64,000 nt of DNA from a virus, in IMG/VR virus record IMGVR_UViG_3300033074_002003. The stretch is one strand, 5' to 3'. The translations under genes and the position numbers were made by a program. Positions 2,393 to 25,990 of this stretch are shown one piece after another. Numbering within the stretch: the stretch's first letter is position 1; every line of letters begins with the position of its first letter. Under the pieces are notes generated by a model that saw nothing but the letters and a program-made list of their open reading frames with translations, was not told the DNA's origin and made no database searches.

Positions 2393-3511
2393 TCAGGACG
2401 CCTTTTCAGTATCATCCTTGGTTGAATCGAGCTCAATCTTCACTGCACCCGTCGGAGTGACCTTCTTGAACGCAAGCGCCTCGAAGTACTTCACTGCCTC
2501 CTGATCTTCAAGATTCACGGGTCCACCCATTCTCTTCGAAACGGCGCGACCGAACATTCTCTCCCAATCGCGGTGCTCGGGTGCCCTAACTTCGAGGTTC
2601 TTCTTCCAGGATGCTTCGATGACTGTCGGCGCAATTCCGAGCTGCTTCGCCTGATAGACAAGCGCATTTACGTCCTTCGGGAAACAGTGACCGCCATAGC
2701 CCCGCGAGCCGTCAGGACCCGGCACTGCCCAGTGAGAAGTTCCGAGCCGCTCATCGAGCCGAGCGTATTCAACGACCTTGTCGTAGTCGATATTCGCGCC
2801 CGTGGCATCGAGTGCCTCACAGATCTGTGACATCTCGTTCGCGAAGGCAACCTTCGTGGCGAGGAAGCAATTCGTCACGTACTTTACCATCTCGGCTGTC
2901 GTCGAGCTCGTCTTGATGAGCTTCACGCTCGGGAATGCAGACTGGAAGATCTCCTTCACCTTGTTGATGTGGGGACGCGGCCCGCCGAGGACGATCCTGT
3001 TCTGGTTCCTCATGTCATCGAGAGCGTTTGCCTCTGTGAGGAACTCGGGGCTGAATACGACGCGGAGACCTGTGCCGGCGTACTTCTTGTTCCACGCTTC
3101 TGTCGAGCCAGGTGGAACGGTAGACTTCACGACCGCGATGCGCGAGCCGGGAACTTTTGCAAGTTCATCGAGCGTTGACTCTACGATAGAGAGGTCGGCA
3201 GCACCGTCCTCATACATGGGTGTCGGAAGGCAGACGAAGTAGACGCCCGAGAAAAGGTGCTGTCTCTCACACTCTTCGACAAAGCCGCGCGTATTGGGAA
3301 CCTCTGCTTGTTCCGCGGGCAGAGTGTCGAGGCCGGCATTCTTTTGCATCTGCTCGAACGAGATAGAAGCTGCAATGAGCGCAGTGCCCCCCTCGGCGAC
3401 CTTTCCCATCTTGTCGTAGACAAACACGGTAAACCCGCGCTCATTCATGACAGTAGTGAGAGACCCGCCGACAAAACCTTGACCAATGATCGCTAGCGAT
3501 TGATTTTTCAT
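2393..3511 (-). CDS. ugd: UDP-glucose 6-dehydrogenase (makes UDP-glucuronic acid)
   Basis: N-terminal Rossmann IIGQGFVGG; catalytic-Cys motif GGHCFPKD; overall UDPG/MGDP dehydrogenase layout. Confidence 0.85.
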   Translation of the reverse strand: MKNQSLAIIGQGFVGGSLTTVMNERGFTVFVYDKMGKVAEGGTALIAASISFEQMQKNAGLDTLPAEQAEVPNTRGFVEECERQHLFSGVYFVCLPTPMYEDGAADLSIVESTLDELAKVPGSRIAVVKSTVPPGSTEAWNKKYAGTGLRVVFSPEFLTEANALDDMRNQNRIVLGGPRPHINKVKEIFQSAFPSVKLIKTSSTTAEMVKYVTNCFLATKVAFANEMSQICEALDATGANIDYDKVVEYARLDERLGTSHWAVPGPDGSRGYGGHCFPKDVNALVYQAKQLGIAPTVIEASWKKNLEVRAPEHRDWERMFGRAVSKRMGGPVNLEDQEAVKYFEALAFKKVTPTGAVKIELDSTKDDTEKAS

Positions 3512-4296
3512 TGTTCGTTCCTAATCCAGCTACGATAGCCCAACACTTCTAGCTCACCCTGAGTAACCCAACGATAACTCATTTGCTTAGTTTCAGCAAA
3601 TTTATGAAGCGCAAAACGTTTGAATTCAGCATTTTTATCACGACCCTTTACTTCTTCAATCGATACTCGATCACGAGTTACCAAGAAATCAGGGACAAAC
3701 ATTTTCGGAACGCCATCACAATTTGTGTATGGTATGCGAATACCATGACGTTTTGTCCACATCACAACAGTGACATCACTATCAAGTCTTTGCATGTAAA
3801 ACTTTTCAAGCATTGAATCATAGAAGAAAGATTCACTTGATTTTGATGATGTATACCAACCTTTACGCCCATACCCATTTGTATTGGGTATTGTCCCGTC
3901 AGCAATGCCGCGAGCTCGAGACTCTGACATTCTTTGACACGTTTCTGCTGTGTGGTGTTTTCCAAAGAAAGGATTATTTTCACCCGTAAAACGTTGGCTA
4001 TTTAGCGCAATTTTTCTACGAGCTTCTTCAGTGTGTGTTTTGCCGAAAAAAGAATTTCCTTCGCCTTTACGAGCTAAAGACATCTTAGCACGAGTTTCAA
4101 GTGATGCTTTCTTCCCACGTTTAGATGCGCTCAGCTTTGCTTTACTTTCAATAGAAAAATGCTTTCCGCGAAATGGATTGTTCCTTGTTGTGAAGCAACT
4201 TCGGCACTCTTGCTTTCGTTGTTCAGCACGTAAAAATGCTTGTTCACCCTTGTATGTCAACTCACGATTACATGTTGGACAATTTCGCACAAACAC
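3508..4296 (-). CDS. homing-endonuclease-like protein: N-terminal Zn finger, three NUMOD3 DNA-binding repeats and a C-terminal putative PD-(D/E)XK-like nuclease domain
   Basis: CPTCN..CRSC finger; repeats NPFRGKHFSIESKAKLS / NSFFGKTHTEEARRKIA / NPFFGKHHTAETCQRMS; C-terminal FVPDFLV..IEEVKG; local GC ~42% versus ~55% in flanks; ATGA overlap with ugd. Confidence 0.6.
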   Translation of the reverse strand: MFVRNCPTCNRELTYKGEQAFLRAEQRKQECRSCFTTRNNPFRGKHFSIESKAKLSASKRGKKASLETRAKMSLARKGEGNSFFGKTHTEEARRKIALNSQRFTGENNPFFGKHHTAETCQRMSESRARGIADGTIPNTNGYGRKGWYTSSKSSESFFYDSMLEKFYMQRLDSDVTVVMWTKRHGIRIPYTNCDGVPKMFVPDFLVTRDRVSIEEVKGRDKNAEFKRFALHKFAETKQMSYRWVTQGELEVLGYRSWIRNEQ

Positions 4297-4357
4297 ATTT
4301 AATCCCTTATCTTACAGTTCATGTTGAGCTCACTGTATATCGAGATGCTTCGAGTGT

Positions 4358-5020
4358 TTATTTCCCGCCGAGATGTTCGTGAAGGGCTTCTGACTCGTAC
4401 CTGTCTAGAGCACGCTCATATTTGGGCTCGCGCCCGAGCGAAATTTCTCGCACAGCGACAGACGACGCGAGCGACGGGCGGTGAAGCGTCGACTTTTCGC
4501 CGGCCTCGTTCAACGCAATCGCGACCCTGCTAGAGTAGCACCTGATGCCGCCGAGGATCGCATTCTTTGTGTCGTACCTCCAGAAGGAAGAAAGCCAGAC
4601 GTTCTTCAGAGACTTCTCGGCCTCGAGGTGCCAGTTCTGTTCAGAACAATCGATCACACAACCAGTAATGACGGTGTCATCATCGAGCAACAGGCAGTGT
4701 CGCCAGTCGTCTACGATGACAAAATCACACGATGCTGCGAAGATTTCCGCTAGCGCCTCGCGTGTGGGCTCGGGAACAGAGATGATCCTGCGCGACTTTC
4801 CCAGGATCTGAGAGAGCGCAATGAGTTGTGGAGAAGATCCGATTGCCACAACCAGCGCGGCTTCTGCCGCAGCGGACTTCTTCGCTGCTTTCCTCGCCGT
4901 TTCCTCGGCCCTAAATTTCTTGTTGGCCTCTCGAATCGCTTTCTTCTCGAGGCGCTTCTTCTCGTATTCTGCGATCCGCGCCGCCCGCTCTTCGAGAGAC
5001 AGTTTCACACCTCTGGGCAT
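4358..5020 (-). CDS. hypothetical protein with a basic K/A/E-rich N-terminal region
   Basis: ORF fits the operon phasing; no recognisable catalytic motifs. Confidence 0.4.
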   Translation of the reverse strand: MPRGVKLSLEERAARIAEYEKKRLEKKAIREANKKFRAEETARKAAKKSAAAEAALVVAIGSSPQLIALSQILGKSRRIISVPEPTREALAEIFAASCDFVIVDDWRHCLLLDDDTVITGCVIDCSEQNWHLEAEKSLKNVWLSSFWRYDTKNAILGGIRCYSSRVAIALNEAGEKSTLHRPSLASSVAVREISLGREPKYERALDRYESEALHEHLGGK

Positions 5021-5051
5021 GTTCAGATTTTACGCCGTCAGTGAGGTGTGT

Positions 5052-5822
5052 TCAGCGAAACCTATTTCTCATGATCGAGACAGCCTGTTCGTTGCTATCG
5101 ACCAAGATGCACGTTCGACCCGTATTCAGCGCCGCCTGTCCTGTCGTTCCTGAACCCGCAAAAAAATCTAGGACCGTCCCACCCACCGGGCAAGAGGCTC
5201 TGATCGCTCGCTCAACGAGCTTCACGGGCTTCTGCGTTGGGTAGTGCCCACCGAACTCCCTCTCTTTACTCTGCGTTCCGACAATAGACATCCACCACAC
5301 GTCTGTCGGATTTTTTCCTGCGGCCGCTCGGTCGGCATCTTTCTGCAGTCCGGGCGCCATGTAGGGAATCTTGTCAATGTCATCCCAGTTGAATACGTGC
5401 CCACCGAACGATTTCACGTACACAAGAATGTCATCGTGCTTCCTGGGCCACCGATTTTTCCCGCGCCCGCCGTAATCATAGGCCCAAATCACGTGGTTGA
5501 GGAAGTTGTGTCGACCGAAGATCTCATCGGCGACTGGTTTCACGTCAAACACCGAGTGATAGTCTAGGTGGATGTAGATCGTCCCACTGTCTTTCAATAC
5601 AGCGTGAGCTGCGCTGAGGTAATTTCGAGTGAATTGAACGTAGTCACCCACACTAAATGAGTCACGATAACGAACACCAGCATCCTCCGTAGATTTTTGC
5701 GTGTAACCGCAGTTGAAAGGCGGGTCGACGTAAATCATATCGATCGACTGTTTTGCGCGCGCAGACAGAAATTCCACACAATCACCGTGATGAATCTCTA
5801 GCGGCGAAGCGCCGCCACCCAT
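5052..5822 (-). CDS. beta-class DNA N6-adenine/N4-cytosine methyltransferase with no adjacent restriction enzyme; likely starts at the internal Met (MGGGASPLEIHHGDCVEF) of the longer ORF 5052..6053
   Basis: Motif IV IYVDPPF precedes C-terminal motif I FAGSGTTG (beta-class order); the upstream 77 codons are Arg-rich and overlap the ATP-grasp gene in another frame. Confidence 0.75.
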   Translation of the reverse strand: MGGGASPLEIHHGDCVEFLSARAKQSIDMIYVDPPFNCGYTQKSTEDAGVRYRDSFSVGDYVQFTRNYLSAAHAVLKDSGTIYIHLDYHSVFDVKPVADEIFGRHNFLNHVIWAYDYGGRGKNRWPRKHDDILVYVKSFGGHVFNWDDIDKIPYMAPGLQKDADRAAAGKNPTDVWWMSIVGTQSKEREFGGHYPTQKPVKLVERAIRASCPVGGTVLDFFAGSGTTGQAALNTGRTCILVDSNEQAVSIMRNRFR

Positions 5823-5845
5823 CTCATCTGGCGCTGGGCCTCTTC

Positions 5846-6646
5846 TCACGTGAGCACTTCTTTCCGCAGTGCGACGTACAGATCGAGAGCTTCGTTCATC
5901 GACAGCCCGGACTGTTGGCCGTCGTTCACTTCGACGACGATCCACCCGCCATCTTGCTTCTGTGCCACATCGACAGCAAAGAACGTGACGTGCTGCGCGA
6001 TGATCTCTGCAACAGATGCCAGAAATTCGGGTGGCGGTCGGGACGTGATCCACTCGGGAGGCACGTCTTCACCGTGCGTCGACCAGTAGTATCCCGTCGT
6101 CAGTTCTGTTGTCTTGTAGAAGAACGAGCGATACTCGCGTGTGATCGGGAGCCCGTGATCTGACCTGCAGTGTGTGAGCAGTGGGACGTACTCTCTGATG
6201 TAGATGTCCTGTTCACCCACAAGAGAATCGGCCGTGAGTCGTGAGTGGACTCGCACGGCGTCCTCGAAAGTCTCTGCGTACATGTGAGTGTCCCACAGAA
6301 ATTTCATCGAGTTCGTCGCGCCCTTCAGGACGAAAGGTCCCTTCGCGTCTCTTATATCCTGAAGCCTAAACCACGTCTTTGGCGTGAGGTCGCCGAGAGC
6401 CGTAGACCACTCGCGCATATCTGCACAGAACTGGTGTTCTCTGTATGTGTTTATGAGTGCACCACCGAGAAGTTCTATATCGTTCTCGAATTCCTTGAAG
6501 AAGGGCAGTGCAGAGTAGCGAGGCACGACAAAATCGCCAGGCTGTACGGCTGCGCGCTGGCGAATGACAGTGAATCCCGCCTGCTGCGCGGCCTCCCGTT
6601 CGTGGTCTTCTTCGCGACCCCCTCGCAGTAGCACTACAGTTCTCAC
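5846..6646 (-). CDS. ATP-grasp fold ligase-like protein
   Basis: C-terminal GGWIVVEVNDGQQSG resembles the ATP-grasp C-terminal strand (cf. RimK ..VMEVNASPG); ATGA overlap with glf. Confidence 0.45.
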   Translation of the reverse strand: MRTVVLLRGGREEDHEREAAQQAGFTVIRQRAAVQPGDFVVPRYSALPFFKEFENDIELLGGALINTYREHQFCADMREWSTALGDLTPKTWFRLQDIRDAKGPFVLKGATNSMKFLWDTHMYAETFEDAVRVHSRLTADSLVGEQDIYIREYVPLLTHCRSDHGLPITREYRSFFYKTTELTTGYYWSTHGEDVPPEWITSRPPPEFLASVAEIIAQHVTFFAVDVAQKQDGGWIVVEVNDGQQSGLSMNEALDLYVALRKEVLT

Positions 6647-7749
6647 AGGTGCCGTTTTGCGAGTGTCAGAGCAGAGGCGACGCAGGGACCCATGTCTGTG
6701 TAGGTGTACCTTCCCAGTCGCCCTCCGACTACATACTTCGGGTCTGAATCGGCGAGCCTCTTGTATTTCTGGTAGACCTCGCCGTTCTTATCGTCATTGA
6801 TCGGATAGTACGGGATCGCGTCGCGCGTCCACACTTCTGGGAACTCGCGCGTCACAACCGACGTGGGCAGGTTGTCCTTGAATTCGAAGTGCTTGTGTTC
6901 TACCTGACGCGTCCAGGGAACGTCGCGCTCTGTGTAGTTCACAGTTGCGGTTCCTTGCACATCGCCCAGGTTGACAGTGTGTTCGAACCTCAGTGTCCTG
7001 TACTCGAGCTCTCCATGAACGTACCCATAGAGCTTGTCGATGGGCCCAGTGTAGAGGATCTTGTCACACATCGCCTCGAGAGTGTGCTGCTCCTTGAAGA
7101 AGTCGACACCCAACTGAACTTCGATTCCTTCGAGCATGTTCTCGAAAATCTGTGTGTAGCCGCCGATGGGAATTCCCTGGTGCTTGTCGTTGAAATAGTT
7201 GTCGTCCCACGTGAGGCGAATTGGGAGGCGTCGCAGGATACTTGCCGGGAGCTTGTCTGGCGTGCGCATCCACTGCTTCGTTGTGTAGCCGTAGACGAAT
7301 GTCTCGTAGATCTGACGACCGACCTGTGTGAGCGCCCACTCTTCCATATTTCGCGGCTGTGGGTATCGCTCTCGGTAGCTACGCGTCACTTCTGCCAAGT
7401 GCATCTTCGCCTCTGCGGGCGTTGACACTCCCCAGAGTTGGTACAGCGTCATCATGTTGATCGGGAAAGAGAACATCTTTCCCTCATAGTTCACCTTCGG
7501 CCGGCAGACGAAGTGATTGAACTTCGTGAAGCGATTTACGTACCCCCACGTTTCGTCGTCGTTGCAGTGGAAGACGTGGGGACCGTGCATATGAACATGT
7601 GTACCTTCTATTTCCTTTGTGTAGCAATTACCACCGACATGTGATTGTTTGTCGATCACCAAACAACGCTTGCCCGCTTCCTTAGCCCTCTGAGCGAATG
7701 TTGAACCTGTAAGACCAGCACCAACAATCAGAAAATCATATTTTGACAT
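6643..7749 (-). CDS. glf: UDP-galactopyranose mutase (makes UDP-galactofuranose); probable start at MSKYDFLIVGAG
   Basis: Near-collinear similarity to Glf: FAD-binding DFLIVGAGLTGS, HVGGNCYT, HMHGPHVFHCND, YQGIPIGGYTQIFENML. Confidence 0.85.
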   Translation of the reverse strand: MSKYDFLIVGAGLTGSTFAQRAKEAGKRCLVIDKQSHVGGNCYTKEIEGTHVHMHGPHVFHCNDDETWGYVNRFTKFNHFVCRPKVNYEGKMFSFPINMMTLYQLWGVSTPAEAKMHLAEVTRSYRERYPQPRNMEEWALTQVGRQIYETFVYGYTTKQWMRTPDKLPASILRRLPIRLTWDDNYFNDKHQGIPIGGYTQIFENMLEGIEVQLGVDFFKEQHTLEAMCDKILYTGPIDKLYGYVHGELEYRTLRFEHTVNLGDVQGTATVNYTERDVPWTRQVEHKHFEFKDNLPTSVVTREFPEVWTRDAIPYYPINDDKNGEVYQKYKRLADSDPKYVVGGRLGRYTYTDMGPCVASALTLAKRHL

Positions 7750-8530
7750 CGAGTTTATTCCTGAGATACTGTACAAGATTATTTTGTGCTAGCTCACGCT
7801 GTGCTTCTAAATCTGTAATTCGGACGAGACGAATGTTTTGATTTTCGAACCACAATACTTGCTCTTGATCTCGAGCTCGCGTGTCTAAAATTACGCGATC
7901 GATGGGTTTATCACTCAACTGTATCGCTTCAACAGAACGATCCAGACCGTGCCAGAACACGCCGTCGACTTGAACATAGATCGTAGGCTCTTTGACTTTG
8001 AGATCAATTTCCCAACCGTTGATTCTGCTCGGCCATTCAACGAGATCTTCGCCGAAGATCGATGCTAGCGCATCACGCACGCTTCTCTCGATTTTGGAGT
8101 GTCGATAAGTTCCATTTTTGACGCGTGTCTGTCTTCCTTTTGCATAGTTCGCGGGCGAAAATGCATTTACTCTCCATTCATCAAATTTTGCTTTGCCTTC
8201 GCTTTCACCGTACTTGGAAATGAGCTTTTCAAGTCTTTCTTGATTTGTCAACCCAGCAGTACCGACCTTATTAGCAGTTTGCCATTTTGATCTACAAGAG
8301 AATCCACAAAATGCAATAGCACCCGCCGAAAGTCGCGCACCATTGATTCGTTGTGTGGTTTCTTGCTTACACTGTTTACACACAAACGTATAATCAACGG
8401 CAACCCATCCGTTCTTCTCTTGACGCTGCCGAACCCAGTAACTAGACAAACACGATTGCGAACAAAAGCGAAGTTTTCTGCCAATACCAGACGCGTCTTC
8501 AAAATCACACAAACAACGTGGACAGTTCAA
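7736..8530 (-). CDS. Zn-finger protein with a C-terminal Vsr/DUF559-like PD-(D/E)XK endonuclease domain (homing-endonuclease-like)
   Basis: CPRC..C..SC and CKQCK..C..SC fingers; C-terminal IYVQVDGVFWHG..DR..L...G..LVRI typical of DUF559/Vsr endonucleases; low local GC (~40%). Confidence 0.55.
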   Translation of the reverse strand: MNCPRCLCDFEDASGIGRKLRFCSQSCLSSYWVRQRQEKNGWVAVDYTFVCKQCKQETTQRINGARLSAGAIAFCGFSCRSKWQTANKVGTAGLTNQERLEKLISKYGESEGKAKFDEWRVNAFSPANYAKGRQTRVKNGTYRHSKIERSVRDALASIFGEDLVEWPSRINGWEIDLKVKEPTIYVQVDGVFWHGLDRSVEAIQLSDKPIDRVILDTRARDQEQVLWFENQNIRLVRITDLEAQRELAQNNLVQYLRNKLDVKI

Positions 8531-8549: not shown

Positions 8550-8915
8550 TCAGCAGTACCTCACGTTCCCGCTACGACAGCGGCCCACTTCTCTTCCCAT
8601 GACATTGAGTCGCTTCTCAATTGCATCTAGACGGATCACCAACATCGGATCGATCGCCTGCGGAGACGGTGGAATGTTCTCTGCGGGGAGCGCAGGTGCG
8701 GGATCGGCGGCGTCCTCTTGCCGTGCATCACCTTCAGCTGGTGTCAGATTGACATCTTCGGCTGAGAGGGTTGTTACCTTCTCGAAGGTCAGTTGGAGGT
8801 GTTCTTTGATCACGCGGGCTTGCGCTGCGCTGATTGAACCAGAACCGCTCGGCTGCAGTTCAAAGTAACCCTGTAGCCAGTAGCAGAATTGTTCTGGTGT
8901 CATTTGCTCTCCCAC
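8550..8915 (-). CDS. hypothetical protein (conserved small phage protein, MTPEQFCYWLQGYFEL N-terminus)
   Basis: ORF in operon phase; no catalytic motif. Confidence 0.4.
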   Translation of the reverse strand: MGEQMTPEQFCYWLQGYFELQPSGSGSISAAQARVIKEHLQLTFEKVTTLSAEDVNLTPAEGDARQEDAADPAPALPAENIPPSPQAIDPMLVIRLDAIEKRLNVMGREVGRCRSGNVRYC

Positions 8916-9286
8916 ACGTAGTTTGTTGTTGTGACCGTGTCGTCAAATCTGTCCGCTAGAGTGTGGAAGTAAATTTTGGGACGCACGTTCGACCTAAGAT
9001 ACTTTTGCACCATCATGTCCTGCAAGAAAAACGACCACACGCGCAGTTCATCGTTGATCCCTGCATTTGGCAGGCGATAAGCGTCCATGTGCATCATTAC
9101 GGGATTGCCGTGCCCAGTCCAGAATTTGGGCGTTGAAACGATTTCGCAATCGATCTCGTCGGGAATGAGAATTTTCTCGATAATGAGCAACTCAGACTCG
9201 GAGGGCTCAGCCCTTCCACTTTTAGTCTTGCTCTCGTGAAGAGTTTTCAGCAAGAGCTCTTTTTCGTCGCTGTTAAAGTGTCTCAT
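8900..9286 (-). CDS. hypothetical protein
   Basis: ORF in operon phase, overlaps its neighbours by a few codons. Confidence 0.35.
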   Translation of the reverse strand: MRHFNSDEKELLLKTLHESKTKSGRAEPSESELLIIEKILIPDEIDCEIVSTPKFWTGHGNPVMMHMDAYRLPNAGINDELRVWSFFLQDMMVQKYLRSNVRPKIYFHTLADRFDDTVTTTNYVWESK

Positions 9287-10187
9287 GCAATGCTCGAATG
9301 ACGTCAGACCACCCGCCCTGTGATTTTATCTCCTCAACACCCTGTTGTATCGCCTTGTCGTTTCTAGTGGGATCTCTGCCGAGAACGCTTCTGATATTTG
9401 TGACGAGCGAATCGAGGTCCTCAAATGGCCTGATCGTTTCGATCGTTTCACAGCCATAAGTGAACACCTGATCGTCAAATGATCGCATCGAGAAGCAGCC
9501 TCGAGCCGCGGCTTCGATGTCTTTGATCCACGGTGGGCTCGCGTTGATCTTTTCGCCGTCAACAGTGCACTCAAAGTTCTCGCTGTGCACAAACACTTTC
9601 ATCTGCGAAAGCGTCGCGAGATAGCTCTGGTAGTCTACCTGTGGAGCGATAGTGACGTCAATGCCGCGAGATTTGAGACCCTCAAACAATTCTCTGCGAT
9701 ACGGGTGAAGTGTACCACAGAATCCGACGTCAATTTTTCTATCGGAAAACTTGGGACCTACGCTGCAGTACTGCGGCAACATCCACATCCTGACAAACTT
9801 CGACGGGATTCCGCGCGAGACGACGAAGTTCGACCACCACGAAGACGTTGTCAGGAATGTTGCGAGGTTCAACCTGCGCTTGATGACATCGTACGTTCCC
9901 TTGAATGGCGACTCGTCGCGGAACGACTCCCACACGTCCTGCTCGTAGAAAAGTGTCCGCGCGCCGCCAAGAAATGATTCGATAGCATCGATCTCACGGT
10001 GAATGGTACGCAACTTCAGAAGTGACAGCGTTCGATCTGAACCCTTCTCGAGTCGCGATCCAGATCGCACGTCAGCGAGTTCATAGTACCTGACGCTGCA
10101 CTGCTGGTCTAGTGTTGCGAGGAGCTGGTGAATGTAGCAATTTGATCTCGCGTACTGGAGTGAGTCTACGATGACGTCTACTTTCAT
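9273..10187 (-). CDS. putative glycosyltransferase (GT-B C-terminal-domain-like, CgeB-like)
   Basis: Weak similarity to group-1 GT C-terminal half; embedded in the glycan operon. Confidence 0.3.
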   Translation of the reverse strand: MKVDVIVDSLQYARSNCYIHQLLATLDQQCSVRYYELADVRSGSRLEKGSDRTLSLLKLRTIHREIDAIESFLGGARTLFYEQDVWESFRDESPFKGTYDVIKRRLNLATFLTTSSWWSNFVVSRGIPSKFVRMWMLPQYCSVGPKFSDRKIDVGFCGTLHPYRRELFEGLKSRGIDVTIAPQVDYQSYLATLSQMKVFVHSENFECTVDGEKINASPPWIKDIEAAARGCFSMRSFDDQVFTYGCETIETIRPFEDLDSLVTNIRSVLGRDPTRNDKAIQQGVEEIKSQGGWSDVIRALHETL

Positions 10188-18778: not shown

Positions 18779-19781
18779 CTGTTGCTCTCTTTCCGATCCC
18801 GGGTGAGGTGACACTGAACGGAGTCCGCCGCTCGAGGGTCTCAAAGAATTCTTTGAACGGCGCGAAACCTTGCGGCATGTAGAGACTCGATACACATTTC
18901 TCCGCGTGGTCCAGCTTGTTCATATCGTGTGACGACATCACGAGCTCAGCGAGGTTGTCACCGATCGAAGACGGGTGAAGAATTTGTGAGGCGGCGCCGA
19001 CATCGCGCGACACGATGGGTGTCCTTGTCGCGGCACACTCAAAGATTGCCTGTGGCCCGCCCTCGTAACGAGATGAGACGATGTAACAGTCTATCGCGTT
19101 GTAGAGCTCGTTGATCCTCTCGATGCTGGGCCTCTCTTCGTAGACAAATGGGATCCCGGCTTGTGTGAGTCGCTGTGTCACGTACTGCCGTCGCCAGCCT
19201 GCAAGAAGTACCGTGAGGCTCGGAATCTTCTTCTGCAGCTTGATGAGCTCGTCACACAGGATGTCAGGGCCCTTTTCGAGCTTCGGTGAGGTGAGATCGC
19301 TACCTTCGGTATCGCGCTGTGCCGAGCCCACGATAAATCGATCGGGTGCGATGCCAAACTTGGACGAGTGCAGAGTGCGAGGACCCGGGAGAGCGTGCCA
19401 GACGTCGGGATTCACCCAGAACGGCTGCGAAAAGATCGGCTTCTCGATGCCGTGTGACGAAAGAATCGCGTGCAGCTGCTCTCGCGTCTTCTCGGACGGG
19501 ACGTGATACGCAGTGATGTACTTGTCGCGGACAAGGAACTCGCCCAGCTCGCGGTGCCCGAACTTCTCTGGAACGATGTGGTGCACAGTTGCGACCACGG
19601 GTCGTCCCGACAGCAGAAATGTGGGCGGAACGTGATTCCACATCCAGTCGGCGATGAGCCACAAAATGTCAGCTTTATTTGGATCTAGTTCGCCCATGCC
19701 GCTCTTTTGCCACTCGCGACAGAAGCGGTCACAAATCCAGTCCTCTTGAGCGGGGAGCGCCCACACTTTCAAATCTGTCAT
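18771..19781 (-). CDS. glycosyltransferase family 1/4 (GT-B)
   Basis: EGGPQAIFECAATRTPIVSRDVG matches the GT1 EX7E-region motif. Confidence 0.7.
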   Translation of the reverse strand: MTDLKVWALPAQEDWICDRFCREWQKSGMGELDPNKADILWLIADWMWNHVPPTFLLSGRPVVATVHHIVPEKFGHRELGEFLVRDKYITAYHVPSEKTREQLHAILSSHGIEKPIFSQPFWVNPDVWHALPGPRTLHSSKFGIAPDRFIVGSAQRDTEGSDLTSPKLEKGPDILCDELIKLQKKIPSLTVLLAGWRRQYVTQRLTQAGIPFVYEERPSIERINELYNAIDCYIVSSRYEGGPQAIFECAATRTPIVSRDVGAASQILHPSSIGDNLAELVMSSHDMNKLDHAEKCVSSLYMPQGFAPFKEFFETLERRTPFSVTSPGIGKRATDV

Positions 19782-20716
19782 CTCTCGACTCCCAAAATTG
19801 AATCGAACACAGCTTCGTACTTCGAAGCTACGGCACCAATATCAAAGCGTCCAGCATCTGGCACAGGCTTCACATCAGGGAGCGCGACCATCTGCTTCAC
19901 ATTGATCTTTGGCGGCTTATCGTAGTATGTGAGTTCGAAATTGTACTCGCTGTCATCCTTCAATACGATGCCGTTCTCGGGACCGACAAGTTCTGCGGTA
20001 CCACCTTCAGAAGAGCAGATTACGGGCAGCCCCTGGGAGAGTGCCTCAATGACAACGTTGGGACAATGGTCGAGCCAAGCGAGGTGTAGGAACCAATCCG
20101 AGCTGCGATACATCTGCAGGCAGACTTCGGGAGTCTGCCGCCCGGCATAAAAGATGTCCGGATCTGCGACCGTCACGTCTGGGTTGGGACCCACAATCAC
20201 GAGACACGACGCGCCGTGAACAGCACGGAGGTGCTTAAAGAGCTCGATATTTGACTTCAGTCGCTTCTGCGGGTGCCATGATGAACTGCAGATGAAGACG
20301 TTCTTGTACGTCTTTCTTAGGCGTTCGAATCCGACCATGGGTGGTGCCGGTGTCGTGTCGATGCCGTTGTGAATGACGCTGAACGCCTTCGGCTCGTCCC
20401 ACCAGTTGATGACCATCTTCCGATCGAAGTCCGACTGAAAAATCACGTGGTTCGCGCGGCGGAAGAATTCCCTGATGGGACGGTTCCTCCTCTCAAACTC
20501 TTCGGGGGAGAACCAGATACCGTCTAGTCGGTGAACAGACGGCTTCCTTTTGTTGAGCTCTCGCGTTGGCTCTATGAAAACAAGTGCGATGTCATAGTCG
20601 TCAGGATCGGCGATTGTGTGGCCGTTGAGGGTAAGCCTCTCAGCCAAACGTGTGGCGAACGTGTTGGGCCCGCTGTTCGAGGAGAAGTTTACATTGTCAA
20701 AGTACACACGTCGCAT
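19778..20716 (-). CDS. glycosyltransferase family 1/4 (GT-B)
   Basis: CPNVVIEALSQGLPVICSSEGGTAELV GT1 motif; ATGA coupled. Confidence 0.7.
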   Translation of the reverse strand: MRRVYFDNVNFSSNSGPNTFATRLAERLTLNGHTIADPDDYDIALVFIEPTRELNKRKPSVHRLDGIWFSPEEFERRNRPIREFFRRANHVIFQSDFDRKMVINWWDEPKAFSVIHNGIDTTPAPPMVGFERLRKTYKNVFICSSSWHPQKRLKSNIELFKHLRAVHGASCLVIVGPNPDVTVADPDIFYAGRQTPEVCLQMYRSSDWFLHLAWLDHCPNVVIEALSQGLPVICSSEGGTAELVGPENGIVLKDDSEYNFELTYYDKPPKINVKQMVALPDVKPVPDAGRFDIGAVASKYEAVFDSILGVER

Positions 20717-20728
20717 GCTACGACAAAT

Positions 20729-21676
20729 TTACGGCGTAGCACTCAGTAGTTCATCGAAAATTGCGGCGAACTTTCCGATGCACGCTCTCCAGTCAGTAAA
20801 CTCAACAGCAGTGTTAGGAACAAAGGTTTCGCTGAGAAGCAGGCGCTCTAACTCCGCTTCAGACGAGAACGAGTGATCTTCACCGGCAAACTCTTTCGCG
20901 CCGCCGCCATTTGTATGGACGTACGTCGGAACACCACATGCGATCGATTCGATCACGTGGTTGGGCCCAGGGTCCCATCGACTCGCGCTGATGTAAACAT
21001 CGGCATTCGCGAGGTGCTCAGCCAGCTCGACACCATAGCACGGCGGGACGTGCGTCGTATTTTGCAGGGTACCCTTGTACCGACCGATGTAAGTGTACGA
21101 AAATCTGTCTCTGTACTTCGGAATGAAATACGAATCGAGCCACTGTGTGAAATCTGCGCCCTTCAGCGCGTTATCCGACCAGTGATGAGTGACAATCCGA
21201 ATTTTGTCAGTTCTGGGAGCACCGCGCGCGGGCGAAAAGACGCCCTTATCGACACCGTTGTAGATGATGTGATCGCTGGATCTGGCGTGGGTGAGGTCCA
21301 GTGACTGCGCCTCCCAAGAGTTCTTCAGGTAGTCGCAAAGCCAGTGGGAAACGAACACACACTCATCGACGTGCTTCCTGCACTTGAAAAGCATCGCATC
21401 TACGTCGGATGTACCTTTTCGAGCATCGCACTCGTTCAACCTTTGGATGACGGCGGCCCGCGGGTTGCTGCGCTTGTACGTCACGATTTCGTTGATGCTG
21501 GGATTCGCGTCCTCGTAGCGCGGGTCGACGATCAGAACTGCATCAGGGTTATCGACGAGCGACCCTACGACAGTGTACCCAAATCCAGAGAATAGGTCGT
21601 GTGCCGCCTGGACAAACAGGTTACCCCCGCCCCAGCTCTGGTTGCGCCGCGGAGTTCGATTGATGAAAATCTTCAT
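20729..21676 (-). CDS. glycosyltransferase family 1/4 (GT-B)
   Basis: GPNHVIESIACGVPTYVHTNGGGAKEF GT1 motif. Confidence 0.65.
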   Translation of the reverse strand: MKIFINRTPRRNQSWGGGNLFVQAAHDLFSGFGYTVVGSLVDNPDAVLIVDPRYEDANPSINEIVTYKRSNPRAAVIQRLNECDARKGTSDVDAMLFKCRKHVDECVFVSHWLCDYLKNSWEAQSLDLTHARSSDHIIYNGVDKGVFSPARGAPRTDKIRIVTHHWSDNALKGADFTQWLDSYFIPKYRDRFSYTYIGRYKGTLQNTTHVPPCYGVELAEHLANADVYISASRWDPGPNHVIESIACGVPTYVHTNGGGAKEFAGEDHSFSSEAELERLLLSETFVPNTAVEFTDWRACIGKFAAIFDELLSATP

Positions 21677-22407
21677 CTCACGAATCCTCGCTTACGAAGA
21701 AACTCTGCCTCACGCGCCTGAAACTTTGCGTCCGCTGTCTGAAAAGTCTCTGGCCTCATGTCGCACCTATACGCATACGTTACGACAGGCACGTAGACAC
21801 GATGTTTCGCTTCGTGTAGCACGGGAAGGAAAATCGCCTGATCTCCCGCTCGACGTATGTATCGCCCGTCTTCGCCCCTGAAGTTCGCATCTGAAACCCG
21901 TGAGATCAGTGACTTACGAAACGTCTTCAGATGGCTCGAGACCCACGGGTGTGTGTAAGGGTTCGCGCCGAGAGCCATGGGCCCAGATATGTTCTGCATC
22001 GTCACGCCGCGATCGTCAAACCAACGGTGTGCGGTCCACGCGGCGTCACAGAAGCCATCGCTGTACACACGATTCAATAGTTCAAGCGCGTTGAGATCAC
22101 AGAGGTAATCGTCGGGATCTATCCGACAGATGATGTCTGTCTCTTTGACAGTGGGGTGTGCGATACACTGCAGGACATTTTCGACCTCCCACAGTTTTTC
22201 GGTGTTGACATGAAGCTTCAACTTGTCTTCAATGCCGAGCTCGCGAAAGAGCCTCGCGATGCGCTCGACAGAATCGTCTGTCGAGAGGTCATCGACGACA
22301 ATGATTGACCAGTCATTGTAAGACTGTCCGGCGAGGCTCAGAACGAATTGCCTGAGGTACCTCGACGCATTGAACATCGGCGCGACGAAGGTGAAGTGAT
22401 TTGACAT
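21673..22407 (-). CDS. glycosyltransferase family 2 (GT-A)
   Basis: FVAPMFNASRYL..SIIVVDDLSTDDS and RIDPDDY motifs. Confidence 0.75.
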   Translation of the reverse strand: MSNHFTFVAPMFNASRYLRQFVLSLAGQSYNDWSIIVVDDLSTDDSVERIARLFRELGIEDKLKLHVNTEKLWEVENVLQCIAHPTVKETDIICRIDPDDYLCDLNALELLNRVYSDGFCDAAWTAHRWFDDRGVTMQNISGPMALGANPYTHPWVSSHLKTFRKSLISRVSDANFRGEDGRYIRRAGDQAIFLPVLHEAKHRVYVPVVTYAYRCDMRPETFQTADAKFQAREAEFLRKRGFVR

Positions 22408-22408
22408 G

Positions 22409-23188
22409 TCACTTGTCGTTGAGCCACTCCGAGACGTAAGCCTCCTCCGGACTCTCTTCTACGAGCGGCTTCTTGCGCGTCATGAGGACCTGACCGTAGT
22501 CGATCTGATCGTCCGTATACCCGCGCTCGTCCATGAAAATTCGGCGATCCATCTTGATGAGCTGCTTCTCGTGTGAGTCAAACTGTGACTCATCGATCTC
22601 GTCGATCGCCCGCGCACACTCGATCGCCTCCTCTTTCTTTGTCGGGAGGTGATAGTCGTCGAAGAGAATGTGACGTGACCACTTGTCCTTCAGTAGTTCC
22701 CAGTCGCGCTTCACTGCGTCGTACCTGTGATCACCGTCGACATAGACGAGATCGAACTTCTCTGGAATTCGCGGAAGCGCGTCCTCTGACTTGTCTGTCA
22801 CGAAAACAATGCCCTTGAACCACTCCTCTGGGAAGATCCTGGCGAGGCTCTGCACGTAATCACGGTTTAGCGATGGGTCGATCGTCGTGATTCGGCCCGT
22901 CTTCCCGAGGTCTGCGAACGCCTTCGCCGCACACATTGTGCTGTAGCCCCGGCCGAAGCCGATCTCGAGGAACGAGTCGAGATTTCCGGTGACGATGAGG
23001 TAGTAAATGAGAATACCTCTCTCGTAATTGCTGCGATAGAAAGCTCCCACAGTATCGAAGAGCTTGTTCCCAGGCTCACGATTTCTCTTCGCCGTGAACT
23101 CGCCGATCGAGTCGAAATGGCCCAGTGAAATGTCAGATACTTTTACGCCGAGCTCCTCGAGCTTCTGTTGGATCTTCAGTGTCTTCAT
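22409..23188 (-). CDS. class I SAM-dependent methyltransferase (Methyltransf_24/CmcI-like; candidate sugar O-methyltransferase)
   Basis: Motif I LEIGFGRGYST; acidic LVYVDGDH. Confidence 0.65.
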   Translation of the reverse strand: MKTLKIQQKLEELGVKVSDISLGHFDSIGEFTAKRNREPGNKLFDTVGAFYRSNYERGILIYYLIVTGNLDSFLEIGFGRGYSTMCAAKAFADLGKTGRITTIDPSLNRDYVQSLARIFPEEWFKGIVFVTDKSEDALPRIPEKFDLVYVDGDHRYDAVKRDWELLKDKWSRHILFDDYHLPTKKEEAIECARAIDEIDESQFDSHEKQLIKMDRRIFMDERGYTDDQIDYGQVLMTRKKPLVEESPEEAYVSEWLNDK

Positions 23189-23784
23189 TGTGTTGGCTTT
23201 CTAAAAAGAACGACGGGTTCGCCGCCGATGGGTGCTGATGCCGTCCACGACAGGTTGTTTCCGAGAAATTCGTCTACTGCGGCTTTTACGCCCACCTTGT
23301 CAGTCTTCACTACGGGTGTGGCGCTCTCGATCTGCGAGTGTGTGTCGCGCTCGGAGTAAAAGAGGTCGCGCTCTGACCATTTTCCGAAGTAGTCATCTAC
23401 GATGAGGAGTCCATCGGGACTCAACAGGTCTTTCAAGAGGTCCAGCTCGCGACTCACCGTATAGTAGTTGTGATCGCCGTCGAGGAAGATGAGGTCGAAT
23501 TTCTCTGTGTTCGGTCCGAGAGTCGGCAGGTAATTCAAGCTGTTGTCAACAACGAACTTGAACTTGTCACTATCAAGAAATCCTGTGTACTTCAGGATCA
23601 CTTCAAGTGAGGCATCAAATCGAATATCGACGGACGTCACTTTGAAATCATTCTTCACGCGTGACAGCCAGAAGAGCATCGGAACGAGCGTCTGCCCACG
23701 GTCCACACCGATTTCAAGAATGTTTGGTCTTGAGACTCGTGAGAGAAACTGTTGTGCGACGGGAATGTAACCGTGATGGCTCAT
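23185..23784 (-). CDS. class I SAM-dependent methyltransferase, paralogue of 22409..23188; start at MSHHGYIP gives an ATGA overlap with the upstream gene
   Basis: ILEIGVDRGQT motif I; LIFLDGDHNY parallels LVYVDGDHRY in the paralogue. Confidence 0.65.
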   Translation of the reverse strand: MSHHGYIPVAQQFLSRVSRPNILEIGVDRGQTLVPMLFWLSRVKNDFKVTSVDIRFDASLEVILKYTGFLDSDKFKFVVDNSLNYLPTLGPNTEKFDLIFLDGDHNYYTVSRELDLLKDLLSPDGLLIVDDYFGKWSERDLFYSERDTHSQIESATPVVKTDKVGVKAAVDEFLGNNLSWTASAPIGGEPVVLFRKPTQ

Positions 23785-24050
23785 AGATTTTGCTCTCGCT
23801 TCTCGATTCCAATGATCTCTTGTCGACGAACGCAAAAGAGCAATTCGCCATCAACGGTGATCTGCTGCATGTGTGCAGATTTTGGAACAAAAATGATATC
23901 GTCCTCGATCGGAAGGGCCCCAACACACGAGATGACGCGCATCCTCTTACACGAAGAAGACGATGAATCGATCATGATGAGATCAGAATCAGAGCTCTTC
24001 TCTTCGATCTCTTTCACGAGAATGAAATCGTTCAGCATCTGTACGGGCAT
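23781..24050 (-). CDS. GroES/Cpn10-like co-chaperonin (analogue of T4 gp31)
   Basis: [22 protein letters not shown] aligns to GroES [31 protein letters not shown] ~ [25 protein letters not shown] ~ EEVLIMSESDILAIV; stop/start overlaps on both sides. Confidence 0.5.
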   Translation of the reverse strand: [89 protein letters not shown]

Positions 24051-25990
24051 CAGTGTTCCCTGTCGTTAGTCCAGCCAATGATATCGCGCGGAAGCGATCT
24101 GTTCACAGAAATGTGAGGCGTTGACGTCTTCCCGTCCCACTTCCTGTGCCAAACCCACCCGCCGAGGACACTCTTCATTAGTGCGGCCCTCTCACGAATA
24201 TCTTCGTCAGACACGTCCGACCACTTCTTGTCAAACATGAAGTTATTTTCTGGTGTGTCTGTGACAGTGACGTCAAACAGAGATTTCCAGTGACGAGCCC
24301 AGTACCCGCGGTACGTCTTGATTTTCCTCTCGAGATCCCACCAAGAGAAGTGAAACACGCCTGGGATCTTGTCTACGACGAAGTTGAACCACTGTTCGTA
24401 GTTTGCAAGTGCGCTGGCGTTGCCCATCATTGCAGCGTGCTTCAACCTTTCGATGTCTGGGGTGTAGAAAGACGAAAATGGGATGGGATCACTGGTGACA
24501 GAGTCGATATAATCGCAGCCGTCTGTGCCCTGCGCTGCGTAGGTGTGTCCCAATGAATCGATTCGCCGAAGCGCGCGGGGGATCCCGTGTGTTATCGCGG
24601 GGTCGTTGCGACTGATCCTCCACTTCCACGGGTTGATGTCCAACCTGACTTTTTCGATCCCGCCCCAATATTCGATGACGGGCAGCGCGAGAAGAGCGGC
24701 ATTCGCCGGGAACCTCATGACGAGGTCCTTGATTTTTTCACAGTCGTCTTCGTGGACAACCTCGTCAGAGTCCTGCTGCCAGCAGAAATCTCCCGTGCAC
24801 ATCTTGCGAGCCTCGGCTTTCTGGAGGCCGTCGAACACTGCATGGCGAGGGTGGTCCCAGTCGCGAGTGATCTGCTTGACCTTCAGGCGCTGTGTCACTG
24901 TACCGTCGACGTTTTGCGTCATATAACCGAGAGCCATCTGTTGCAGTCGGCTCCACGTGCTGTCTGTCGATCCGCCGTCCACGACGCAGACCTCATCGCA
25001 GAATGCAAGCATGCTTTCGATGCTTTCGCGAAATGGGTATCCCTGGTCGACGCAGTTGTACGTCGTCGTGTAGCCACTGATCTTCGGGCGATCCAAGTGA
25101 GACTTGGTATCGGCCCAGAACCTGGAGCGGCTGAGAAATAGGTACGATTCGGTGTCGACGCGGTCGGGCGATGTGAACCACTCCTCGGCCGCATGTTCGA
25201 CATTTTCATTGAGGTGCAGCTCACATCCGAGGAGTTTTGCCTCGATCACCATTCGTGGGCATGTATCTCCGCCGAGGGGCAGGTAAACGAATCCTGTGGC
25301 CCGCGCGAGCCTGTCAAGAAGTTCATCGTACGGCAAGTTCCACACGATGTCGTAGTCTTTGCCCGTAGACTTACACCATTCGACCGCCGCGTCGAAACCC
25401 TTCACCCACGACTTCGATCCGAGAACAATCCACTTTCCGTCGCGGGGACTGTCAGCATATTTCTTGTTCAACTGGGCAACCTTGACGAAAAATTGGTCAT
25501 CAAACACCGACGAGAGGACTGTGTTGTTGCACTGCTGGATCTCAGGAATCTTTGCGATGTACCTGCTTCTCTGGCGTTCGGACATCCACCAGATCGACTG
25601 GGCGCCGCAGAAGAACGTCGAAATTAGCTTCCCGTGTGCCTCGTTTTCGCAGTTGCATGGATTTCCTTCGATGGCGGCGTGTTTCTCTGGGGAGCGGTAT
25701 TTGCAGTACTTGTAGTCGTACTCCAGGATTGCGTACTTGATCCCAGAGGAAACGATCACGGGTAGAAGCGAGATGTCCATGCCCGCAAAATTGCCAAAGA
25801 TCCAGAAACGATCTTTTCCCTCTTCAAGGATCGATCTCGTAACACTGGATGACTTCAACTTGAGAAGCGGGAAGGGTGCAGAGTCGATGATCGCCTGCGA
25901 TGTTAGCTCTGCTCCACCGACGTACTCGTCAACGAAGAAGTCAGAAACGAAGACAAATTTGACGTCGGCTTGGATTTGGCCTGGAACCAT
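24050..25990 (-). CDS. two-domain glycosyltransferase (N-terminal GT-B-like plus C-terminal GT2-like); first gene of the leftward operon
   Basis: C-terminal half carries GT2 motifs CVVDGGSTDS and QQDSDEVV; the N-terminal ~300 aa resemble a separate glycosyltransferase domain. Confidence 0.55.
   Translation of the reverse strand: MVPGQIQADVKFVFVSDFFVDEYVGGAELTSQAIIDSAPFPLLKLKSSSVTRSILEEGKDRFWIFGNFAGMDISLLPVIVSSGIKYAILEYDYKYCKYRSPEKHAAIEGNPCNCENEAHGKLISTFFCGAQSIWWMSERQRSRYIAKIPEIQQCNNTVLSSVFDDQFFVKVAQLNKKYADSPRDGKWIVLGSKSWVKGFDAAVEWCKSTGKDYDIVWNLPYDELLDRLARATGFVYLPLGGDTCPRMVIEAKLLGCELHLNENVEHAAEEWFTSPDRVDTESYLFLSRSRFWADTKSHLDRPKISGYTTTYNCVDQGYPFRESIESMLAFCDEVCVVDGGSTDSTWSRLQQMALGYMTQNVDGTVTQRLKVKQITRDWDHPRHAVFDGLQKAEARKMCTGDFCWQQDSDEVVHEDDCEKIKDLVMRFPANAALLALPVIEYWGGIEKVRLDINPWKWRISRNDPAITHGIPRALRRIDSLGHTYAAQGTDGCDYIDSVTSDPIPFSSFYTPDIERLKHAAMMGNASALANYEQWFNFVVDKIPGVFHFSWWDLERKIKTYRGYWARHWKSLFDVTVTDTPENNFMFDKKWSDVSDEDIRERAALMKSVLGGWVWHRKWDGKTSTPHISVNRSLPRDIIGWTNDREH

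Follow-up and report, generated by a model that had tools for sequence, protein, structure and literature searches.

What does a large bacteriophage build with an uninterrupted run of glycan genes, and to what does it attach the product? This question is raised by a 64,000-nucleotide stretch of viral DNA, IMG/VR record IMGVR_UViG_3300033074_002003 (hereafter the window), in which positions 2393-25990 (23.6 kb) hold 29 consecutive genes on the minus strand, about 21 of them for glycan enzymes. Glycan clusters are known from phages, their targets have almost never been established, and the present one is unusually large. We find that the block is native DNA of a jumbo phage and that, judged by homology, a core of six glycosyltransferases and a dehydrogenase recurs across related large phages, with sugar-tailoring modules that vary from one to the next. 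As to its purpose, we tentatively favour glycosylation, in the cytoplasm, of an acceptor that the phage itself encodes, probably virion proteins. The main rival to this reading is that the host envelope is remodelled; glycosylation of phage DNA is a minor one.

The limits of the block, established from a listing of open reading frames (ORFs) and inspection of start codons, are exactly those given by a first-pass annotation of the same DNA: 25990 is the ATG of a gene for a glycosyltransferase of 646 amino acids (aa), 2393 is the stop of a dehydrogenase gene, and coding occupancy between them is near-complete. The minus-strand chain itself runs on past the last glycan gene, unbroken from 25990 to at least 325. 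Most genes had been described as joined by ATGA or TGATG stop-start overlaps, and this holds for 16 of the 28 junctions, 15 of which are 4-nucleotide (nt) ATGA/GTGA overlaps and one a TGATG overlap; the remainder are four longer overlaps (8-50 nt), seven gaps of at most 35 nt and one gap of 61 nt. Comparable overlaps are found at only 7 of 26 junctions among the window's plus-strand genes. These counts rest on some start codons chosen during the analysis, and the public call for the DNA methylase gene gives a 23-nt gap in place of an overlap. From this arrangement, a single long transcript with translational coupling across the block is plausible. Scans for sigma-70-type promoters and terminators gave no convincing signal in the block, with counts close to those expected from shuffled sequence.

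Nine of the block's proteins have homologues of 30-55% identity in one bacterial locus (L027, GCA_964344385.1), as might arise if bacterial DNA had been joined to a phage contig during assembly. The first-pass annotation had named a discontinuity in GC content at the borders as a sign of such a chimera, and there is none: GC is 0.49-0.55 in the block and 0.50-0.55 in most of the remaining window, with no step at either border. Relative synonymous codon usage in the block correlates with that in the rest of the window at r = 0.96, GC at third codon positions is 0.628 against 0.622, and the tetranucleotide correlation of 0.94 exceeds that between the two halves of the remaining window. The window's exact PseB-like protein is indexed in 38 blocks of the metagenome collection, and six contigs that we examined, from different samples, are collinear with the window and 99-100% identical to it. 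The same block junctions are present on independent ENA, JGI and Logan assemblies, including the longest of these contigs (305,889 bp). In addition, the block contains phage-type homing endonucleases, the same GroEL-like gene neighbours it in diverged relatives, and the cluster is carried by 20 IMG/VR viral contigs. The probability of an assembly artefact is therefore negligible; the chimera explanation is rejected, and the block is native phage DNA. A variable presence of the 264-aa nuclease gene among the contigs was also considered and rejected, because BLAST alignments are collinear and 99-100% identical and only the gene calls differ.

In its right half the window carries genes for a terminase, a portal of T4 type, a prohead protease and a capsid protein of gp23 type, so that homologues of gp17, gp20, gp21 and gp23 are all present (PHROG matches to terminase, portal phrog_213, protease phrog_207 and capsid phrog_138; precomputed Pfam matches to Portal_T4, Peptidase_S77, Gp23 and Terminase_6N). 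A T4-like phage had been proposed from the first reading, and these matches support it. Because the head genes are of T4 type and the longest collinear contig measures 305,889 bp, the source is a jumbo phage of about 306 kb with a distant T4-type core. Genes for a primase, a fused SbcCD-like nuclease, PhoH, ClpP, a peptide deformylase and a truncated GroEL-like protein lie in the same half. Among deposited phages, the closest are Flavobacterium phage immuto, Microcystis phage Mel-JY01, an uncultured 484-kb phage and Rhodothermus phage RM378, at protein identities of about 36-51%. The tie to T4-type phages is a remote one: no deposited phage exceeds about 40-51% identity. Walking the flanks for about 10 kb on each side of the window revealed NAD-salvage and structural genes, and no further sugar genes within that distance.

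Pfam and NCBIfam profile searches of each block ORF, the check that the first-pass annotation had suggested, matched nucleotide-sugar and glycosyltransferase families. Twelve ORFs gave no Pfam match, and several of these were resolved through structure prediction or through homologues. The enzymes predicted to make or tailor sugars are listed here, together with an accessory ATP-grasp protein; UDP is uridine diphosphate, GNAT and SDR (short-chain dehydrogenase/reductase) are enzyme families.

2393..3511, minus strand: nucleotide diphosphate (NDP)-sugar 6-dehydrogenase, 372 aa, the last glycan gene (PF03721 and PF00984)
5846..6646, minus strand: ATP-grasp protein of the R2K_3 family, 266 aa, accessory (PF14243, E 2e-17)
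6643..7749, minus strand: UDP-galactopyranose mutase, 368 aa (PF03275, E 4e-72; TIGR00031, an equivalog family, 329 bits against a cut-off of 304)
10903..12586, minus strand: DegT/PseC-like sugar aminotransferase, 384 aa (PF01041, E 6e-83), and PseH-like GNAT N-acetyltransferase, 192 aa (PF13302, E 3e-12)
12596..14286, minus strand: FabG-like classical SDR, 250 aa (adh_short_C2, E 8e-39), and GNAT-like protein, 313 aa (weak Acetyltransf_9 match, E 3.5e-4)
15095..16114, minus strand: UDP-GlcNAc 4,6-dehydratase of PseB/FnlA/CapD type, 339 aa (PF02719, E 8e-74)
22409..23784, minus strand: two tandem S-adenosylmethionine (SAM)-dependent Methyltransf_24 enzymes, 199 and 259 aa (PF13578, E 4e-15 and 2e-16)

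These matches bear out the dehydrogenase of UDP-glucose type, the UDP-galactopyranose mutase, the PseB/DegT/GNAT module and the two tandem Methyltransf_24 enzymes that had been named from the sequence. The dehydrogenase scores 212 bits against TIGR03026 (subfamily cut-off 190), and its best NCBIfam equivalog matches are the UDP-glucose dehydrogenases AglM and TuaD. For the dehydratase, aminotransferase and GNAT, the best-matching families are those of the pseudaminic acid route, all below cut-off: TIGR03589 (PseB) at 234 bits with a cut-off of 408, TIGR03588 at 237 with 424, and TIGR03585 at 47 with 93. We considered a full pseudaminic-acid pathway and rejected it. PseG, PseI (NeuB-type) and PseF are missing, with no NeuB, CTP_transf_3 or Glyco_tran_28_C match in any block ORF at E values up to 10, and the candidate ORFs have GT-A or GT-B folds. 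The amino-sugar branch would accordingly end at a UDP-2-acetamido-4-acylamido-2,4,6-trideoxyhexose, with no nonulosonic acid formed. The PseB-like dehydratase is itself rare in deposited phages, with tblastn matches in only seven of 50,697 records. The best of these (LR745206.1, 430172-431104, 39% identity) lies unannotated in a 634,780-bp uncultured huge phage, which suggests that other huge-phage lineages may carry amino-sugar pathways too.

The SDR had been assigned to the synthesis of an amino-dideoxyhexose. That assignment falls, since the protein is of FabG/acetoacetyl-CoA-reductase type and not a sugar ketoreductase; its best NCBIfam matches are 3-oxoacyl-acyl carrier protein and acetoacetyl-CoA reductases. 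A GNAT motif is visible in the sequence of the adjacent 313-aa protein, for which a single-sequence PDB search gave nothing. Because the SDR is of FabG type and always travels with the GNAT-like protein (the two co-occur in the same 2 of the 24 related loci described below), it more likely makes an acyl donor, and we speculate that the pair forms a module for making and transferring an N-acyl (hydroxyacyl) group. The tandem Methyltransf_24 enzymes, which have weaker matches to RMNT_CmcI, TylF and Methyltransf_3, are probably sugar O-methyltransferases.

About ten glycosyltransferases had been counted in the block, one of them with two domains, and our tally agrees: nine domains are supported and two are tentative (9-11 domains in 9-10 proteins). 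Pfam identifies three GT-B and two GT2 enzymes. Four others (391, 271, 304 and 276 aa) escape Pfam and came to light through structure prediction or their homologues.

9273..10906, minus strand: probable GT-A enzyme, 240 aa, and GT-B-type glycosyltransferase, 304 aa (homologue evidence)
14283..15098, minus strand: GT-A-fold enzyme, 271 aa, no Pfam family (invariant DxD motif)
16150..16980, minus strand: probable GT2-type glycosyltransferase, 276 aa (no direct Pfam match; a 49%-identical ortholog in related locus L010 matches PF00535)
16977..18152, minus strand: GT-B-fold glycosyltransferase, 391 aa, no Pfam family, the cluster marker (AlphaFold2 and Foldseek)
18771..21676, minus strand: three GT-B (GT1/GT4-type) glycosyltransferases, 315, 312 and 336 aa, core genes (PF00534, PF13692)
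21673..22407, minus strand: GT2 (GT-A) glycosyltransferase, 244 aa, core gene (PF00535, E 2e-12)
24050..25990, minus strand: two-domain glycosyltransferase, 646 aa, the first gene of the block (Glycos_transf_2, of GT2 family and GT-A fold, at residues 309-440)

In the 646-aa protein, a PDB profile search matches the GT2 segment to GmaR and chondroitin synthase. Its N-terminal part, of about 290 aa, shows GGAEL and DTCPRMVIEAKLLGC motifs in the ortholog alignment and gives a weak hhalign match to a GT-B family (E 0.006); this domain is probably GT-B-like, an assignment that we regard as tentative. The 391-aa protein belongs to a family of 41 homologues, none with a Pfam domain, and its AlphaFold2 model (predicted local distance difference test score 91) is matched by Foldseek to the GT4-type GT-B enzymes PglA, BshA and MshA at E values near 1e-8. 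Single-sequence PDB searches with the 391-aa and 271-aa ORFs gave nothing, and profile searches with the 391-, 271- and 240-aa families gave marginal matches only. The 240-aa protein has 609 homologues with an invariant D68-A69-D70 and a weak hhalign match to the N-terminus of a GT2 alignment (E 1.6e-4, probability 50%), and is probably, if tentatively, a GT-A enzyme. For the 304-aa protein, PF13524 is matched by seven homologues. The three families that have no Pfam model (391, 271 and 240 aa) are concrete targets for biochemistry.

The distribution of these genes was determined in 24 related loci gathered through the 391-aa family, from contigs with diverged members and from a scan of IMG/VR. 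A scan with the single 391-aa protein found nothing; one with the family alignment succeeded. Their viral contigs measure up to 349 kb and span GC contents of 31-52%, and presence or absence was read from a tblastn matrix.

Core, 391-aa GT-B: 24/24 loci (the search query, so present by selection)
Core, 315-aa GT-B: 20/24 loci
Core, 312-aa GT-B: 20/24 loci
Core, 244-aa GT2: 18/24 loci
Core, 336-aa GT-B: 18/24 loci
Core, dehydrogenase: 16/24 loci
Core, 646-aa enzyme: 15/24 loci (several loci are cut at this end)
Frequent module: PseB-like dehydratase 14, DegT 15, GNAT 13, 240-aa 15, 304-aa 13 and 276-aa 14 of 24 loci, with the 271-aa enzyme within the 11-15 range
Accessory, 259-aa methyltransferase: 10/24 loci
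Accessory, UDP-galactopyranose mutase: 6/24 loci
Accessory, SDR and 313-aa GNAT: 2/24 loci
Accessory, ATP-grasp: 0/24 loci

The phage orthologs of the dehydrogenase (324-349 aa or longer) have no detectable PF03720 domain. Where accessory genes are replaced in the relatives, the replacements are again sugar-tailoring enzymes: GDP-mannose dehydratase, other epimerases, RmlD, nucleotidyltransferases, hexapeptide, formyl and carbamoyl transferases, FkbM methyltransferases and WbqC. The ATP-grasp protein is present in the block, as had been noted, and absent from every related locus. The endonucleases of the block likewise have no homologue in the 24 loci. Among the 50,697 deposited phage records, a megablast search with the whole block gave no match, and the 646-aa and 312-aa core glycosyltransferases had no tblastn match.

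In joining nucleotide-sugar modification genes to several glycosyltransferases, the block resembles an O-antigen or capsule locus. What it lacks is a membrane component. Every block protein has at most one transmembrane (TM)-like segment, and there is no Bac_transf or Glycos_transf_4 match in the block to indicate an initiating phosphoglycosyl transferase of WbaP/WecA type. Neither the block nor the 24 related phage loci yielded a flippase, polymerase or ABC exporter; among 497 same-strand ORFs of those loci, three TM-like segments or more occur in just one, a 164-aa ORF of the most distant locus. The description of the gene set as self-sufficient was therefore too strong: beyond these functions, no nucleotidyltransferase or recognised acceptor was found in the block, and the pathway starts from host UDP-glucose, UDP-galactose, UDP-GlcNAc, acetyl-CoA and SAM. 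The bacterial counterparts are differently equipped. In L027, six of the nine homologues are contiguous, in the order PseB-DegT-240-GNAT-276-304, and adjoin a 577-aa ABC exporter with five TM-like segments. A locus of Thalassospira lucentensis (L026) combines PseB, DegT and GT9/GT2/GT1 genes with a 5-TM sulfatase-family protein, and a third homologous locus (P0031) has a Polysacc_synt flippase. Because the phage versions are devoid of the polytopic membrane proteins that the bacterial loci carry, the phage lineage seems to have acquired the cytoplasmic steps of a bacterial glycan pathway without ever retaining those for export.

Soluble virus-encoded glycosyltransferases and sugar-nucleotide enzymes with no export machinery are what a virion-glycosylation system comprises, and this is the composition of the block. 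In the pathway that we propose, host UDP-glucose, UDP-galactose and UDP-GlcNAc would be converted to a UDP-uronic acid, UDP-galactofuranose and a UDP-2-acetamido-4-acylamido-2,4,6-trideoxyhexose; the glycosyltransferases would assemble a hetero-oligosaccharide or polysaccharide stepwise in the cytoplasm; and the assembled glycan would then be O-methylated. The acceptor would be a phage-encoded protein, probably a virion component, and the variable tailoring modules would give each lineage its own glycan 'serotype'. A phage-encoded acceptor is the most likely one because no version of the cluster encodes an initiating enzyme, flippase, polymerase or exporter, and because the six-glycosyltransferase core is kept across phages of 31-52% GC, whose hosts probably differ and present different surface glycans. 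A probably related lineage has, moreover, been reported to count glycosyltransferases among its core genes together with structural ones (PMC12619734), which further favours the virion.

Alternatively, the phage enzymes could build or extend a lipid-linked glycan of the host, such as O-antigen, lipopolysaccharide (LPS) core or lipooligosaccharide, capsule, or an S-layer or flagellin glycan, by way of the host's own initiating enzyme, carrier and exporter; the altered surface would block superinfection or free progeny from receptors. The gene runs shared with bacterial envelope-glycan-type loci (Thalassospira, L027 with its ABC exporter, P0031 with its flippase) fit such a role, glycosyltransferases need no TM segment to act on lipid-linked acceptors, and the clusters of jumbo cyanophages have been read in this way (PMC7824862). 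Nonetheless, we consider envelope remodelling somewhat unlikely. Flippase, exporter, polymerase and phosphoglycosyl transferase are kept in 0 of the 24 phage versions, unlike in the cellular counterparts; a core conserved over such a range of GC implies different hosts with different surface glycans; and the cyanophage clusters are described instead as sporadic and polymorphic (PMC7824862). If the envelope were the target, the block would illustrate clearly how a lytic jumbo phage can depend on host export routes.

Several points weigh against glycosylation of the virion. Glycosyltransferases with lipid-linked intermediates as substrates are likewise soluble or peripheral, the cellular homologues of the block genes sit in envelope-glycan-type loci, and the lack of TM proteins is still compatible with the use of host undecaprenyl carriers, of lipid A-core and MsbA, or of host exporters. 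The phages immuto, Mel-JY01 and LR756508, whose capsid proteins are up to about 50% identical to that of the window, have no core glycosyltransferases, so the capsid does not need the glycan. No Ser/Thr-rich acceptor tract was seen in the capsid protein or the neighbouring large proteins, and no acceptor was recognised. There is no T4 late-promoter motif near the block. The predicted sugars hold at the level of enzyme families only, and the real substrate of the dehydrogenase is uncertain because its C-terminal UDP-binding domain (PF03720) is undetected. Finally, the genes inspected are those of the 64-kb window and about 10 kb on each side, out of a genome of about 306 kb.

A broader form of the virion reading is possible, although we hold it with considerable doubt. 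Here the six-glycosyltransferase core and the uronic-acid-forming dehydrogenase would build the backbone of a virion-protein glycan throughout the lineage, as an autonomous cytoplasmic system, and swappable modules (galactofuranose; N-acetyl, N-formyl or N-hydroxyacyl diamino-sugars; O-methyl; carbamoyl) would supply the 'serotypes'. If so, bacteriophages would have their own equivalent of the glycan coats known from giant viruses, with at least three glycosyltransferase families that lack a Pfam model among its enzymes.

The mutase and the DNA methylase bring a third target into consideration, the DNA of the phage. The glycosyltransferases would then modify 5-hydroxymethyl- or 5-hydroxy-pyrimidines as a defence against restriction, with phage-made UDP-galactofuranose among the donors. 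A phage UDP-galactopyranose mutase takes part in a proposed glycosyl-5-hydroxycytosine pathway of Rhizobium phage RL38J1 and related Pootjesviridae (PMC13326640), and homologues of the window's mutase occur in 90 phage records, those of Rhizobium and Aeromonas phages among them. The methylase lies within the block, and enzymes of LPS and teichoic-acid type are the source of phage DNA glycosyltransferases (Pyle et al., bioRxiv 10.1101/2023.12.21.572611); like the enzymes here, those of the DNA glycosylation clusters are GT-A and GT-B proteins of LPS type. However, the known DNA glycans are mono- to trisaccharides (bioRxiv 10.1101/2023.12.21.572611), and 9-11 glycosyltransferase domains, two O-methyltransferases and an N-acyl amino-sugar pathway go far beyond what these need. 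The mutase is accessory, and the methylase is of N6/N4 and not C5 type, with a homologue in 1 of 24 related loci. In the window and 10 kb on either side there is no C5 methylase, 5-methylcytosine oxidase (TET/JBP), dCMP hydroxylase or hydroxymethylase, thymidylate-synthase-like hydroxymethylase, dCTPase or dNMP kinase. We judge DNA hypermodification very unlikely.

The solubility of all block enzymes would also suit a glycoconjugate, soluble or secreted, a small-molecule glycoside, or the glycosylation of a cytoplasmic host protein, with the product acting as a metabolic or anti-defence effector. The accessory ATP-grasp protein, and the carbamoyltransferase and FkbM-type methyltransferases of the relatives, recall the tailoring of secondary metabolites, and a comparable suggestion comes from Iyer et al. 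for a second cluster of cyanophages (PMC7824862). With no enzyme to form an aglycone or scaffold (polyketide, nonribosomal peptide, terpene or cyclitol synthase) in the block or its relatives, and with ten glycosyltransferases, far in excess of known glycoside natural products, such a product seems improbable.

The glycan clusters of giant viruses (Mimivirus/Megavirinae and chloroviruses) include pathways of 4,6-dehydratase, aminotransferase and N-acetyltransferase, with sugar repertoires specific to each clade. Virion glycosylation is also described for mycobacteriophages (Freeman et al. 2023, as cited in PMC12619734). The giant-virus and mycobacteriophage systems share with the present block virus-encoded, soluble glycosyltransferases, which there work in the cytoplasm without a host export route, as those of the block would. 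Should its product be on the virion, jumbo phages of aquatic bacteria would join the giant viruses, where complex glycosylation of particles has been shown, and the mycobacteriophages, where a simple form has, with a bearing on adsorption, stability and recognition by grazers or immune systems.

Clusters of this scale had been called untypical of T4-type phages in the first-pass annotation, which is incorrect. T4-like jumbo cyanophages carry large 'LPS' or capsular-polysaccharide clusters, of 15 genes in P-SSM2 (Iyer et al. 2021, PMC7824862), and four putative glycosyltransferase orthogroups are listed in the core of the 'moraphages', aquatic jumbo phages of 200-307 kb (Perez-Hernandez et al. 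2025, PMC12619734). The cyanophage clusters resemble the present one in their T4-type background, in their paralogous NAD-dependent epimerase/dehydratases, several glycosyltransferase families and O-methyltransferases, and in that function is read from sequence in both cases. With about 21 glycan genes and 9-11 glycosyltransferase domains, the present block exceeds them in size. It lacks a PfkB kinase and a nucleotidyltransferase, and its core is conserved in its lineage and not sporadic, with two enzymes (646 and 312 aa) unmatched in deposited phage genomes. The moraphages, a likeness judged by description and not from sequences, are similar in size (the 305,889-bp contig fits), in having several core-like glycosyltransferases and in their frequent homing endonucleases and chaperones, and the closest capsid and terminase matches of the present phage include RM378 and Flavobacterium phages. 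The window differs in its GC content of 52% and in having no DnaK or DnaJ, and the moraphage paper describes no cluster, sugar pathways or missing export genes (PMC12619734). The bacterial loci L026 and L027 share PseB-DegT-GNAT modules and Methyltransf_24, GT1 and GT2 genes with the block; the polytopic membrane proteins (the exporter in L027, the sulfatase-family protein in L026) are bacterial only. What is new is the size and composition of the cluster, its lineage-wide status as a core with variable parts, and the lack of a match in deposited phage genomes. Also new are three glycosyltransferase families with no Pfam model and the consistent absence of export functions in comparison with the bacterial homologues.

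The block, which the first-pass annotation had described as a glycan operon, is not made up of glycan genes alone. Interspersed among them are genes for two nucleases, a DNA methylase and a GroES-like protein, together with several small ORFs:

3508..4296, minus strand: NUMOD3 and TnsA-like homing endonuclease (PF07460, E 2e-27)
4358..5020, minus strand: 220-aa ORF (no Pfam match; homologue only in L010)
5052..5849, minus strand: N6/N4 DNA methyltransferase (PF01555, E 1e-47)
7736..8530, minus strand: 264-aa nuclease with Zn-finger and Vsr/PD-(D/E)xK-like parts (weak zf and Vsr matches)
8550..9286, minus strand: two small ORFs, 128 and 117 aa (no Pfam match; essentially absent from related loci)
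18149..18778, minus strand: two small lineage-specific ORFs, 115 and 82 aa (no Pfam match; no homologue in the 24 related loci)
23781..24050, minus strand: GroES-like ORF, 89 aa (positional counterpart in L010 matches Pfam Cpn10)

The 264-aa nuclease has a C-terminal WEIDL...VQVDGVFWHG motif and shares 35% identity at its C-terminus with a DUF7487 protein of L007, and its gene is probably a selfish element. Selfish nucleases are scattered through this phage and its relatives (window 3508-4296, 7736-8530 and 46270-46701; L007:5288-5803; L010:6124-6594; L023:12026-12889). They are of NUMOD3 plus TnsA-like, Zn-finger/Vsr-like, TnsA-like, GIY-YIG (L007) and Endonuclease VII (L010) kinds, and differ between relatives at comparable positions. 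Contigs L023 and L024 carry, downstream of the capsid gene, a 287-aa TnsA-like gene that is absent from the otherwise near-identical 305,889-bp contig (L025).

Upstream of the block lies a divergent intergenic region:

25991-26171, no strand assigned: intergenic region dense in GATC/AGATCT and TTAAC motifs

Twelve GATC sites, several of them AGATCT, fall within 133 bp (26016-26148), the densest 200-nt GATC stretch of the window, and TTAAC/GTTAAC motifs are interleaved with them; TTAAC-type repeats are also found in the equivalent region of L010. The region is a candidate for regulation and may act as an operator or in methylation-sensitive control. GATC occurs window-wide at about twice expectation (543 observed, 248 expected), and the N6/N4 DNA methylase is encoded in the block that this GATC-rich region precedes.

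Divergent from the glycan block, in a position kept in L009 and L010, is the gene for the truncated GroEL-like protein (26630-27883, plus strand, 417 aa), which covers GroEL residues of about 60-424 (E 5e-10 against PDB chains). The 89-aa GroES-like ORF has no direct Pfam match and shows weak pairwise similarity to its counterpart in L010 (E 0.006); the two proteins may constitute the phage's own chaperonin pair. Further along, 32926-46280 holds seven consecutive plus-strand genes (305, 794, 1228, 617, 237, 420 and 781 aa) with no Pfam or PHROG match and a raised Ser+Thr content (0.17-0.22). These may be tail, fibre or baseplate proteins and, as such, candidate glycan acceptors.

Clues to the host were few: no tRNA was found, and the ClpP protease, encoded at 29917-30492, is at most 36% identical to any match in a bacterial genome. 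A peptide deformylase gene (57902-58393) lies between those for the prohead protease and the capsid protein. Directly downstream of the block and on the same strand is an NAD-salvage set (window 325-2271, and L021:8028-9410) that comprises a fused NMN adenylyltransferase-NUDIX protein, a radical-SAM protein and, just outside the window, a nicotinamide phosphoribosyltransferase; it is followed by PTH2-like, tRNA-binding and HD-domain genes.

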